Of a DNA stretch of 64,000 nucleotides, positions 61,657-64,000 are shown piece after piece (the first letter of the stretch is position 1; each line of letters opens with the position of its first letter). The stretch is from Escherichia phage vB_EcoM_ASO1A: the sequence record MZ726791.1. One strand, written 5' to 3'. Below the pieces are notes generated by a model. It was given only the letters and a program-made list of their open reading frames with translations, searched no databases and was not told where the DNA came from. Both the position numbers and the translations under genes were made by a program.

Positions 61657-62169
61657 TCAACTTAGTTTTGCAAACTCTCCGTGGAGTTTAATAGCAGCTT
61701 CACAGTAAGCTTTATGGGCTTCTTCTTCTGTTGTGTACGTCCCTATATGTATAGTCTTACCATTATGGTTAATCTGGGCTATCCACTTACCAGACTTGCT
61801 TCTACTTGTACCTTTTAAGTTTTTTGATGTTCTGGGTTGTCTCCTATTAGACATGTTCTGCTCTTTTGTGGCCTCTCTTAGATTGTCCCAAGCGTTATTC
61901 AAACCATCCCCATCTTTGTGGTCAATGTGTTTATCAGGCCACTTACCTGTCATCCAGAACCAAGCAATTCGGTGATTACCTGTCCTGTATCCTAAAATCT
62001 GTGTGTGCATATACACACCAGACCTTGTGCGCTTAATTGCTCCGGCTTGGCTTCCAATGACCACCCTACTACTATGTGGAGGTCTGCCAATCCATGTTAA
62101 GACCCCTGTTTCGGGGTCATAATCTAACCAAGACTTTAACTGTTCATGTGTGAATCCACAATCTCTCAT
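61657..62169 (-). CDS. HNH homing endonuclease with AP2-like DNA-binding domain
   Basis: HIDHKDGDGLNNAWDNLREATKEQN (HNH) and GKWIAQINHNGKTIHIGTYTTEEEAHKAY (AP2-like); ATG 62167 overlaps polymerase stop (ATGA). Confidence 0.75.
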   Translation of the reverse strand: MRDCGFTHEQLKSWLDYDPETGVLTWIGRPPHSSRVVIGSQAGAIKRTRSGVYMHTQILGYRTGNHRIAWFWMTGKWPDKHIDHKDGDGLNNAWDNLREATKEQNMSNRRQPRTSKNLKGTSRSKSGKWIAQINHNGKTIHIGTYTTEEEAHKAYCEAAIKLHGEFAKLS

Positions 62170-64000
62170 CAATGTACCTCATACCAGCTTTTACCAACCT
62201 TACCAGTACCAGTTACCAGTGTTTCACTCTTTAGTCCTAAGTTCTTAGAGGCTTGCCCGTAATACCAATCAGTGACAGCCTTCACCTCTGCCGTCATACT
62301 TTCTGGACATTCCCAACTCGTCTCATCGTGATAGGAGCACAATAAACGAGCACCTATAGCTGGTTTGCGACCGTTCAACTTCATCAAACCTTCGTCAATC
62401 ATACGACGGCAAGCAAGGTTAATTGCCTCGTTCTGAATCTGACTTTCCGAACCCATAAGCAAATAATTCAACAACTTATGTGGAGATTTACACCACAACC
62501 AAGCTCCAGCAACCTTTACAAAACCCCCTTTAGAGATTGCAGCAGTCTTACCAAACACCTCTTCAAGTGCCTTTTTAGTTGCTTTGTAGTCAGCTTCCAA
62601 GTCATCTAGCAGCTTCTTAATTTTAGGCAAACGAATAAAGTAAGTCTGTTTAGTCAGTGCACCTTCCTGAGTAGTTGCAGCTTTAATCGTCTTAGCAAAC
62701 TTCTCATCACCTGCACCGAACAGCAGTGCATAGATACCATTCTTAGCTTTCTTACGGCCTTTGCTAATCTCATGGAGAAGGTTCTCATCCTGAGTAGCTC
62801 GACAAGTCAAGATATCCTGCTCATCATTCAAGCTAAAGTAAATACTGTTCAATGTATGTGCATCAGTCCCTGAATAGACAACGTACAGGTCATTCTCAGA
62901 GTCATAGCGAAGGTACTTATCAATCTCTGGGTTCAGGTACTCATCAAAATGTTTGCAGTAATAGCGTCCATCTTCTTGACGAATGAACTCAATTTCTTCT
63001 TTACCTTGCGTTACCGCTTTGGTGAAGTCTTTATCACCCATAAAGTTACAAAGAAGAACTAGCTGGGCTGAGTTCATATCTACAGAGACAACGTTAGTAC
63101 CTTCCTCACAAATCCATACTGCCCTCATTGGTTCTCCATAGACAGCAGCACCAGACGGTACGTTTACAATACCATACTGTGTCATACGTCCAGTTGAAGT
63201 ACCAAACACCATTGCACCAGCACTAAGGCGACCATCAGGACGAATCTGGTTAAGCCAACCTTTTTCATCATCCTTTGAGTTCTCAATAGTTCTGCGTCGG
63301 TGCATCAAAGTATAGTACTTAGCAATCTTCTGTCCAAGCTCACCTTCAATCGTATCATAAGATGATTCAGTAAGTTTTGGTGAAGTACGGATTAAGCAAG
63401 GTTCAAGCAAATCTGTGTATTTCTTCACAGACCAGTTATGCTCGATGTACTGTACACCTTCATGTTCAACATAACTCAAACCACACCGCTCAACCATTTC
63501 CTGCCACTTAGGATGCTTTGTAATCATCTTTTTATTGTCTTTGAAACGACAAACTTTGACAGGGCGACCGTCTGAGTCTTTCTTGTAGTTCCAGTCATCT
63601 GGAATCCAACCAACTGATTTCAAGTAGTCTTTTACAACTGCTACCTGAGTCATACGAGAAACTTCAAACTCAATTGGTGTATATGGTGCATCAATCAATC
63701 CTGTGTAGCGACTTGACTCAAGTTCAAAGTGGTTAACAACGTGGCTGTTATAGTACTTCACAGTTTTGACTGTTTTTACTGGCTTCCAGTCTTTGCATTT
63801 CTTACCAATCTTTGCATTCAACTCATTGCAAATTGCACGAGCATCCTTCATTGCTACAAAACCTTCCTTGTACTCTTCACCAGTTACAGAGTTGGTTGGT
63901 GTGTAGCAATTTCTCTTTTCAATGTTAAAAATCTTTGTAGTTGGCTTACCAAACGGTTTGATTTCGTATGTCTGCATCTCACCGTTACGTACCTGTTGAC
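62169..64000 (-). CDS. DNA polymerase, family A (C-terminal polymerase domain; N-terminal part lies beyond window)
   Basis: Motif A-like VSVDMNSAQLVLL, motif B-like RKKAKNGIYALLFGAG, motif C SYHDE; C-terminus ends WYEVH like Pol I; frame stays open to window edge. Confidence 0.75.
   Translation of the reverse strand, partial: QQVRNGEMQTYEIKPFGKPTTKIFNIEKRNCYTPTNSVTGEEYKEGFVAMKDARAICNELNAKIGKKCKDWKPVKTVKTVKYYNSHVVNHFELESSRYTGLIDAPYTPIEFEVSRMTQVAVVKDYLKSVGWIPDDWNYKKDSDGRPVKVCRFKDNKKMITKHPKWQEMVERCGLSYVEHEGVQYIEHNWSVKKYTDLLEPCLIRTSPKLTESSYDTIEGELGQKIAKYYTLMHRRRTIENSKDDEKGWLNQIRPDGRLSAGAMVFGTSTGRMTQYGIVNVPSGAAVYGEPMRAVWICEEGTNVVSVDMNSAQLVLLCNFMGDKDFTKAVTQGKEEIEFIRQEDGRYYCKHFDEYLNPEIDKYLRYDSENDLYVVYSGTDAHTLNSIYFSLNDEQDILTCRATQDENLLHEISKGRKKAKNGIYALLFGAGDEKFAKTIKAATTQEGALTKQTYFIRLPKIKKLLDDLEADYKATKKALEEVFGKTAAISKGGFVKVAGAWLWCKSPHKLLNYLLMGSESQIQNEAINLACRRMIDEGLMKLNGRKPAIGARLLCSYHDETSWECPESMTAEVKAVTDWYYGQASKNLGLKSETLVTGTGKVGKSWYEVH

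Follow-up and report, generated by a model that had tools for sequence, protein, structure and literature searches.

A free-standing HNH-AP2 homing endonuclease gene that probably spreads as a cassette behind the DNA polymerase stop codon of Felixounavirus phages

Homing endonuclease genes cluster beside polymerase genes and at recombination boundaries (PMC10448857), and those that join an HNH nuclease to an AP2 domain form a recognised class in phages (PMC1524935, PMC10448857, PMC2248197). The class goes back to Magnani et al. 2004, as cited in two of these papers (PMC1524935, PMC10448857), and its members include RB49 ORF040c, the IPA-HNH genes of ICP1 and the HNN-AP2 genes of the Xanthomonas phages Xp10/Xop411 (PMC2248197). 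Felix O1 itself has six free-standing HNH genes, ORF95 among them (PMC3185647). The 64,000-nucleotide stretch analysed here, hereafter the window, comes from a Felixounavirus (a Felix O1-like myovirus), and its nearest record is Escherichia phage vB_EcoM_ASO1B, with 96.7% identity across 5 kb and 97.4% across 3.4 kb. At its end, an HNH-AP2 gene abuts a DNA polymerase gene, and we think it probable that this gene is a free-standing homing endonuclease gene spreading as a cassette behind the stop codon of a single polymerase of ~906 aa.

The initial annotation placed an HNH-AP2 homing endonuclease gene directly against a family-A polymerase gene that continues past the window edge, and this is borne out by Pfam matches to both proteins and by a polymerase frame still open at position 64000 (Table 1). 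The two genes and their sub-features all lie on the minus strand. The polymerase frame (62172-63998) holds 609 codons without a stop and closes with the TGA at 62171-62169, although its entry in the ORF listing begins at an internal ATG (63977). It matches the Pfam DNA_pol_A profile (E=2.9e-15; 56.5 bits, cut-off 34.3) as well as PHROG DNA polymerase families, and among proteins of solved structure T7 DNA polymerase is its best relative. The translation contains motifs A, B and C, as the annotation had reported, and their order together with the profile match places the protein in family A; its C-terminus reads GKSWYEVH. The polymerase of the nearest relative, ASO1B_095 (906 aa), is 100% identical to it and collinear across all 609 codons. 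Given the strong profile matches and the recurrence of the same polymerase plus HNH-AP2 arrangement in dozens of related genomes, a chance arrangement can be dismissed.

Table 1. Features of the polymerase/HNH-AP2 locus (window coordinates)
Feature	Position	Strand	Basis
Family-A (T7 gp5-like) DNA polymerase gene, 3' two-thirds	62169..64000	-	Pfam, PHROG, T7 relative, ASO1B
Polymerase motif A VVSVDMNSAQLVLL	63051..63092	-	read in translation
Polymerase motif B RKKAKNGIYALLFGAG	62709..62756	-	read in translation; uninterrupted here
Polymerase motif C LLCSYHDETSWE	62310..62345	-	read in translation
Last ~330 nt of polymerase gene, highly variable module beside HNH insertion site	62172..62498	-	identity comparison
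Minimal transferred cassette, 519 nt	61668..62186	-	high-identity tract common with L028 (polymerase protein identity 63%)
GAGG Shine-Dalgarno-like sequence	62177..62180	-	read from sequence; putative function
Free-standing HNH-AP2 homing endonuclease gene, 170 aa	61657..62169	-	ATG 62169-62167, stop TGA 61659-61657
HNH_3 catalytic domain, residues 66-106	61852..61974	-	Pfam, I-HmuI alignment
AP2 DNA-binding domain, residues 122-164	61678..61806	-	Pfam, PDB sequence matches
3'-terminal ~70 nt of HNH gene (encoding …EEAHKAYCEAAIKLHGEFAKLS and the stop)	61657..61726	-	allele comparison
Conserved intergenic element TTGACAAGGTGCTCAGGGAAGAGTACCTTATACTATATCTTGTATAGGAGGGTTT	61606..61660	-	precedes next gene; HNH stop within its TTGACA
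Downstream 69-aa gene, Felix O1 ORF94 homologue, right flank of insertion site	61396..61605	-	homology

Judging from related sequences, the window ends inside one polymerase gene of ~906 aa, with ~297 N-terminal residues, the presumed 3'-5' exonuclease part included, lying beyond its edge. We compared the frame in 35 relatives and in 10 contigs that encode the exact HNH protein. In every one of the relatives it runs on for 290-301 codons upstream of the window-edge position, in an extension that has the Exo I-like motif GDTETDGL at its start, and in all ten contigs the polymerase is one gene, 899-906 aa long, that ends at the HNH start. Because relatives and contigs alike have one continuous ORF of ~900 aa, the N-terminal residues are best taken as simply off-window, and the same ORF is expected for ~891 nt more past position 64000, starting MRLMILEGVKMENVDFKNLHLVGDTETDGL. 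The initial annotation was thus right that the N-terminal portion could lie outside the window; its other option, separate encoding, is not supported, since the relatives carry that portion in the same ORF. A Pfam search of the full-length ASO1B polymerase returned no exonuclease domain, and the T7 exonuclease region gave a weak local match only.

These comparisons leave next to no room for a split or fractured polymerase with a separate N-terminal exonuclease gene, or for one bearing an intein. It is true that the ORF runs off the window and that two polymerase CDSs are annotated in some relatives, but the frame is continuous across the window-edge position in the 35 relatives and 10 further contigs, and where two CDSs are annotated, a group I intron at another place in the gene accounts for them. 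Within the window, the 609 codons are uninterrupted, with no Hint or intein domain (Pfam), no extra in-frame insert and no intron at the Rfam gathering threshold, which answers the intein and split-gene check that the annotation had proposed. For annotation purposes, the window polymerase is one gene truncated by the window edge rather than a split gene.

The polymerases annotated as two CDSs in Si3, VSe102 and similar phages, Salmonella relatives included, are on our reading single genes whose motif B holds a group I intron, a separate element that is absent here, and the several GenBank Felixounavirus records of this kind are better taken to contain one intron-interrupted gene. The intron site of these relatives corresponds to the motif-B bond 62727/62726, between …NGIYA and LLFGAG…, 555 nt upstream of the polymerase stop, and tblastn searches with the polymerase break at residue 424/425 in eight related loci (L002, L003, L030-L035). 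The insert of L035 matches Rfam RF00028 with 62.1 bits. Detection of the intron in relatives succeeded only when inserts of ~0.3-1 kb were searched at an E-value threshold; gathering-threshold searches of the whole L002 and L003 loci gave no match at all, and the same search of the whole window gave 23 tRNAs and nothing else. Two forms of the intron occur, one of ~800 nt with its own endonuclease VII-type ORF and one of 268 nt (L035) without an ORF. Our literature searches returned no paper joining Felixounavirus with a group I intron, and only irrelevant matches for split polymerases in FelixO1-like phages.

The HNH-AP2 protein is assigned by matches to Pfam HNH_3 (54 bits, cut-off 24.8) and AP2 (38.1 bits, cut-off 33.3) and to PHROG 99 HNH endonuclease (E=1.5e-63); residues 1-65 have no family assignment. 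Its AP2 domain matches plant AP2/ERF structures in the PDB (WRI1 7wq5, E=3.3e-8; ERF096; AtERF1), and IDHKDGDGLNNAWDNLREATKEQNMSN of the HNH core aligns without gaps to residues 63-101 of I-HmuI (1u3e), so that D83, H84 and N105 correspond to D74, H75 and N96 of that enzyme. In I-HmuI, D74 and H75 are the catalytic Asp-His pair and N96 is the metal-binding Asn of the beta-beta-alpha-metal motif. Copies of the window's allele type (type A) differ by up to dS ~1.2 and have dN/dS values of 0.04-0.15. The gene is thus under purifying selection with its predicted catalytic residues intact, and its reading as a pseudogene was rejected. It is the only gene of its kind that we found in the window: tblastn revealed no second copy of the protein at E<=1e-5, and Pfam scans of ten other mid-sized ORFs revealed no further HNH genes.

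The junction between the two genes reads GAGGTACAT TGA TG AGA. The polymerase stop (62171-62169) and the HNH ATG (62169-62167) therefore share one base in a TGATG overlap, and the ATGA overlap described in the initial annotation is to be corrected; a 4-base overlap (TTGA) is possible only from an in-frame TTG at 62172. A GAGG within the last polymerase codons (…TAT GAG GTA CAT TGA TG) lies 7 nt from the ATG. Because of the TGATG start, the embedded GAGG and the failure to detect a promoter of its own, the HNH gene is most likely translated from polymerase mRNA by coupling. On the other side of the gene lies a conserved intergenic element, which in empty-site genomes begins (TTGACAAGG…) 6-9 nt after the polymerase stop. 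We do not call it a promoter because a sigma-70 consensus scan did not flag it, and such a role would be only a guess. An intron-encoded endonuclease was also considered and rejected, since the ORF sits between the polymerase stop and the upstream element of the next gene, no intron model matches in the window, and empty sites are simple intergenic junctions.

Occupancy of the site was compared among 36 related loci and in 60 GenBank records, taken as a spread sample from 280, of which 55 rows were informative. Presence and absence of the cassette and several alleles at one exact site are observed directly: 14 of the 36 loci are empty, and in the 22 occupied ones the same position holds either the allele of the window or one from a set of at least three more that are only 40-54% identical, while the GenBank sample divides into 19 empty rows and 36 with an insert of ~495-530 nt. 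The HNH-AP2 alleles at this identical site fall into six clusters, four of which are mutually only 40-54% identical. Six loci (L006-L010, L021) are empty even though their polymerase is 99% identical. Phages that lack the gene include UAB_Phi87 (JN225449), whose empty site lies within 55137-55370, and wV8. The cassette has also been transferred between diverged genomes with sharp borders. Type-A cassettes are 92-99% identical in L028, L029 and L031, where the adjoining polymerase 3' end is 57-75% identical, and the similarity begins 17 nt before the polymerase stop and ends 10 nt before the HNH stop. The minimal cassette accordingly comprises the last five polymerase codons with the stop and the HNH gene minus its last three codons and stop. 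Taken together, the sequence comparisons indicate cassette-like mobility of the HNH gene. The signs of mobility that the annotation had looked for are thus present, namely empty sites, at least four divergent alleles and a cassette more similar than its flanks. As for the outcome it had named as contrary to its proposal, the uninterrupted polymerase is indeed found in relatives, but an HNH gene present in all of them without mobility is not, 14 of the 36 sites being empty.

Two other views of the gene bear on this evidence. Once fixed, homing endonuclease genes often decay (PMC1654191, PMC2248197), and the gene might be such a decaying, inactive remnant, fixed at the site and immobile. We regard this as very improbable: the ORF is intact over its 170 aa and keeps the D-H…N catalytic residues, dN/dS stays well under 1, the gene has not reached fixation in the genus, and a near-identical cassette behind a polymerase of just 63% identity argues for recent transfer. 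Alternatively, the nuclease may have been domesticated and kept for a benefit to the phage, for example in degrading or excluding competitor phage DNA or in aiding replication or recombination. The strong purifying selection across such diverged copies fits this idea, as do the tight coupling to an early polymerase gene and the possibility of co-option noted for homing-endonuclease-like HNH genes (PMC10448857). We nevertheless consider domestication unlikely, since the gene is dispensable, about one-third of Felixounavirus genomes having nothing at the site and some of these being 99% identical in the polymerase, and since alleles only 40% identical fill the site, a pattern that repeated invasion fits better than a conserved accessory function.

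The polymerase gene beside the cassette is itself a mosaic, and our identity comparisons suggest that its last ~330 nt recombine independently of the remainder in Felixounavirus. Four loci (L005, L016, L017, L020) are 97-100% identical to the window in the first 1500 nt and 79-80% in the last ~330 nt, and two others (L011, L012) have the opposite pattern, with 84-91% in the first 1500 nt and 94% in the last ~330 nt. The suggestion that the HNH gene marks a mosaic or a split polymerase can therefore be kept for the mosaic, the last ~330 nt being shuffled, and dropped for the split, relatives having a single ORF. The type-A allele adjoins several different polymerase 3'-end haplotypes, which implies that flanking co-conversion is short or often erased and that ordinary recombination, and not the endonuclease, could account for the mosaicism.

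A further possibility is collaborative homing in trans, in which the HNH-AP2 enzyme would cut within the polymerase gene, in or close to the place where the motif-B intron inserts, so that the adjacent group I intron would be mobilised or alleles without an intron excluded. Trans homing has been described for T4 mobE/I-TevIII (PMC2790892). The presence of a group I intron in motif B of relatives is consistent with such a process at this locus, as are the sequence mosaic on both sides of the intron site and locus L035, which combines the ORF-less 268-nt intron with a free-standing HNH-AP2 gene downstream. The cyanophage psbA intron is a further case of collaborative homing. We find this scenario distinctly unlikely here, because intron and HNH-AP2 gene are not associated: type-A HNH genes occur without the intron (the window, L001, L005, L016) and with it (L002, L031), and the ~800-nt endonuclease VII-bearing intron lies beside an empty HNH site in L030 and L032-L034. 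Moreover, the sharp cassette borders at the polymerase stop point to a target near the insertion point.

We therefore favor homing of the cassette into the slot behind the polymerase stop. During mixed infection, the enzyme would nick or cut the junction of polymerase 3' end and intergenic region in a co-infecting relative that lacks the gene, and recombinational repair from the HNH-bearing genome would then place a copy of the ~0.5-kb cassette exactly between the stop codon of the polymerase and the conserved element TTGACAAGG…. Short flanking stretches of the polymerase gene may sometimes be co-copied, which would help to make its 3' end mosaic. More tentatively, the slot may be a contested landing pad where four or more HNH-AP2 lineages, all deeply diverged, displace each other, an idea that we put forward as a possibility and would not rate as the expected outcome. 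The 3'-terminal ~70 nt of the HNH gene, the sole stretch common to all the divergent alleles here (97-100% nucleotide identity), may provide the right-hand homology when one allele displaces another. If this were true, homing endonuclease genes would be competing with one another and not just invading empty sites, and their competition could be what reshuffles the last 330 nt of the polymerase gene independently of the rest. With several alleles at one site and with naturally empty and occupied isolates readily available, the locus would be a convenient system for the homing of free-standing endonucleases and would serve to study the effect of homing on recombination in an essential gene. Many of the empty and occupied Felixounavirus isolates are therapeutic or biocontrol phages.

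The window gene is already known, being identical to an annotated homing endonuclease and belonging to a class known since 2004. ASO1B_094 (UAW58076.1), annotated as 'HNH homing endonuclease', is 100% identical to it in nucleotides and protein and has the same position, with the same 1-nt overlap on the polymerase gene. Si3, VSe102, VpaE1_ev108 and heid have identical or near-identical HNH genes, and the downstream small-ORF region differs among genomes with such genes. Felix O1 ORF95 (Felix01p176, NP_944955.1), a type-B allele, occupies the same post-polymerase insertion site with the same HNH plus AP2 architecture; its last 69 nt are identical to those of the window gene, but protein identity elsewhere is 40%, and its overlap with the polymerase gene is 19 nt long rather than 1. 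Like other members of the HNH-AP2 class, the window protein joins an N-terminal HNH nuclease to a C-terminal AP2 domain, and its gene is free-standing, as are theirs, which are multi-copy or variable in phages and often near polymerase genes. The members in RB49, Xp10/Xop411 and ICP1 belong to other phage lineages and have low sequence identity to the window protein, whose HNH domain, unlike those of the ICP1 genes, matches the standard Pfam HNH_3 profile. I-HmuI shares the association with a family-A phage polymerase gene and the conserved catalytic D, H and N; its sequence match to the window protein is weak (E=0.05-0.2), and its gene sits within a group I intron, whereas the window gene is free-standing. 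The C-terminal DNA-binding part of I-HmuI is a helix-turn-helix and not an AP2 domain. T4 MobE differs in its target and host genes and in a DNA-binding module described as a zinc finger (PMC10448857), and we liken it to the window gene by description. It too is a free-standing HNH gene between essential genes, and it spreads by cutting a nearby gene where it is absent and co-converting the flanking DNA (PMC2790892).

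Two adjoining ORFs fill the minus strand of the window at 61657-64000. The first, with 609 stop-free codons in translation (63998-62172), is open at the window edge, and the ORF listing has it begin no earlier than an internal ATG (63977). In Pfam it matches DNA_pol_A (E=2.9e-15; 56.5 bits vs a cut-off of 34.3) and in PHROG the DNA polymerase families; it has T7 DNA polymerase as its best solved relative, and carries polymerase motifs A, B and C along with the Pol I-like end GKSWYEVH. The protein encoded by the second contains HNH_3 (residues 66-106, 54 bits) and AP2 (residues 122-164, 38.1 bits), both exceeding the curated Pfam cut-offs, and matches PHROG 99 'HNH endonuclease' (E=1.5e-63). 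Plant AP2/ERF structures match its AP2 part, and a gap-free alignment of its HNH core with the homing endonuclease I-HmuI sets D83, H84 and N105 at I-HmuI D74, H75 and N96. These domain and motif matches therefore bear out the initial annotation, which had placed an HNH-AP2 endonuclease gene against a family-A polymerase gene running off the window, in all but one detail: the genes were said to meet in an ATGA overlap, but the junction, …GAG GTA CAT TGA TG AGA…, is TGATG with one base shared, or TTGA should the upstream TTG be the start.

Coordinates of features in the window and in related loci (L002, L031, L035)
Feature	Location	Strand	Basis or description
HNH-AP2 gene, 170 aa	62169-61657	minus	Pfam, PHROG
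Motif A, VVSVDMNSAQLVLL	63051-63092	minus	polymerase translation
Motif B, RKKAKNGIYALLFGAG	62709-62756	minus	polymerase translation
Motif C, LLCSYHDETSWE	62310-62345	minus	polymerase translation
Intron insert	L035 4346-4613		268 nt, ORF-less
Intron insert	L031 3200-4000		~800-nt form
Intron insert	L002 7698-8502	minus	~800-nt form

Comparison with relatives that lack the HNH-AP2 gene supports the earlier suggestion that it is mobile. The site is empty in 14 of 36 loci, where the polymerase stop is followed by 6-9 nt, the conserved element TTGACAAGGTGCTCA…TATACTATATCTTGTATAGGAGG and the next gene; in the other 22, a 484-537-nt segment with an HNH-AP2 ORF lies between stop and element. An empty-junction probe had 280 GenBank matches; in a spread sample of 60 of these, the match is interrupted by an insert of 495-530 nt in 36, is contiguous (empty site) in 19 and is uninformative in 5. 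The gene is absent even from loci with a 99% identical polymerase (L006-L010, L021). Site occupants form six clusters at an 85% identity threshold, and four lineages (A, in the window; B, in Felix O1; C; and D) are mutually only 40-54% identical. Similarity is also discordant with the flanks: in L028, L029 and L031 the type-A gene keeps 92-99% identity next to a polymerase 3' end with just 57-75%. In L028, where protein identity of the polymerase falls to 63%, the high-identity tract (window 62186-61668) starts 17 nt short of the polymerase stop, at TGGTATGAGGTACATTGATG, and ends 10 nt short of the HNH stop, at GAGTTTGCAA. This L028 gene (4903-5415 of IMGVR_UViG_3300045988_028620; 96% protein identity) also follows a polymerase gene, and the sequence downstream of it is unrelated; the cassette seems to have passed to a phage of far more distant kinship. 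Type-A copies have dN/dS values of 0.04-0.15, with dS up to 1.2, and by this measure the gene is under constraint. Taken together, the sequence comparisons indicate that it is most likely a free-standing homing endonuclease gene, a mobile cassette.

The anatomy of the cassette fits a neat insertion. It provides the last codons and stop of the polymerase gene and carries GAGG 7 nt from the HNH gene's own ATG, and the HNH stop codon lies inside the TTGACA of the conserved downstream element. About 70 nt at the 3' end (window 61657-61726, encoding EEAHKAYCEAAIKLHGEFAKLS*) are common to all alleles at 97-100% nucleotide identity; the remainder is 27-73% identical per 10-codon bin and 40-54% identical in protein. 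Protein-level selection cannot be the cause of this identity because synonymous sites in the stretch are identical as well. The most economical hypothesis would be recurrent recombination or gene conversion there, for example during allele replacement, and the pattern suggests that such exchange acts at the cassette's right border. This multi-allelic insertion site with a common 3' module is a side observation of modest value. The ~55-nt intergenic element itself (window 61606-61660), with TTGACA at its start, GGAGG at its end and a short inverted repeat, TATAC…GTATA, is kept in all Felixounavirus loci irrespective of the next gene; a sigma-70 scan called no promoter in it. The small-ORF region at 59282-61605, which separates the HNH gene from the DNA ligase gene, is highly mosaic, with ORF94-like, 72-aa and DUF4884 genes present, absent or swapped among relatives. 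The ligase ORF has 379 aa in the window vs 366-367 aa in many relatives, and some records annotate two ligase CDSs.

The N-terminal part of the polymerase had been placed either outside the window or in a separate gene. In all 35 relatives (every orientable locus) the frame extends 290-301 codons upstream of the window-edge position, starting …LHLVGDTETDGLL, an Exo I-type motif, and in Escherichia phage vB_EcoM_ASO1B the polymerase is a single 906-aa ORF. In each of ten independent contigs encoding the exact HNH protein, a single polymerase gene (899-906 aa) ends on the HNH gene's first base. Given these unanimous relatives, we infer that the off-window part is continuous with the window ORF. 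Pfam detected no intein-type domain and Rfam no intron anywhere in the window, and with the continuous frame these results do not support a split gene.

Several Salmonella phages (Si3, VSe102, FG1m and others) do have two annotated polymerase CDSs. By tblastn, the break falls exactly at residues 424/425 of the window fragment, within motif B (…KNGIYA|LLFGAG…, window 62727|62726). The short insert matches the Rfam group I intron RF00028 (62.1 bits, E=1.7e-15; gathering score 50); the long form matches the group I core in pieces and has an ORF matching Pfam Endonuclease_7. An intron interrupts these polymerase genes; they are not split. The intron and the HNH-AP2 gene occur independently of each other: in L030 and L032-L034 the site downstream of the intron is empty, in L002 and L031 it holds type-A HNH, and in L035 another HNH-AP2 allele. 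The intron was unmarked in all three annotated records inspected, and Si3 has no annotation of the intron ORF. Felix O1 itself lacks a group I intron according to its genome paper (PMC3185647), and our literature search for Felixounavirus and group I introns found no paper. This unannotated intron is likewise of modest value as a side observation.

Segment-wise identity indicates that the polymerase tail (62498-62172, ~330 nt) is inherited separately from the rest of the gene: in L005, L016, L017 and L020, identity to the window is 97-100% for the first 1500 nt vs 79-80% for the tail, and L011 and L012 have the reverse pattern. Homing endonucleases inserted at polymerase genes had been said often to mark mosaic or split genes; the mosaic half of that remark holds here, with a tail shuffled independently, and the split half is not supported. 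One type-A allele is found beside several tail haplotypes, so co-conversion tracts are either short or erased by later recombination. The endonuclease may be the cause of this hotspot.

More than 260 GenBank phage records match the region at 89-97% identity, and the matches listed are Felix O1-like myoviruses (Ounavirinae, Felixounavirus) of Escherichia, Salmonella, Shigella and Citrobacter. Closest among them is ASO1B, 100% identical in both the polymerase part and the HNH gene. Records bearing the names of Campylobacter phage A126 (MG065668) and of a Staphylococcus phage also align with this region, at 80-85% identity or better, and are probably mislabelled or contaminated. As expected in Felix O1-like phages, 23 tRNA genes cluster on the plus strand at 26246-31394, among them ORFs matching DUF7338 (29479-30036) and DUF7217 (30425-31222).

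Elements of this kind are known, and the identical copy of the HNH-AP2 gene in ASO1B (ASO1B_094) is already annotated as 'HNH homing endonuclease'. Translation of the gene is probably coupled to that of the polymerase on the polymerase transcript. By analogy with characterised free-standing phage HNH endonucleases such as T4 MobE (PMC2790892), the encoded enzyme would introduce a nick or a cut into the junction region when a co-infecting genome lacks the gene, and repair would then copy the gene into the recipient. HNH-AP2 genes form a recognised class of homing endonuclease genes in phages (PMC1524935, PMC10448857, PMC2248197); homing endonuclease genes are reported to cluster beside polymerase genes and at the borders of recombination (PMC10448857).
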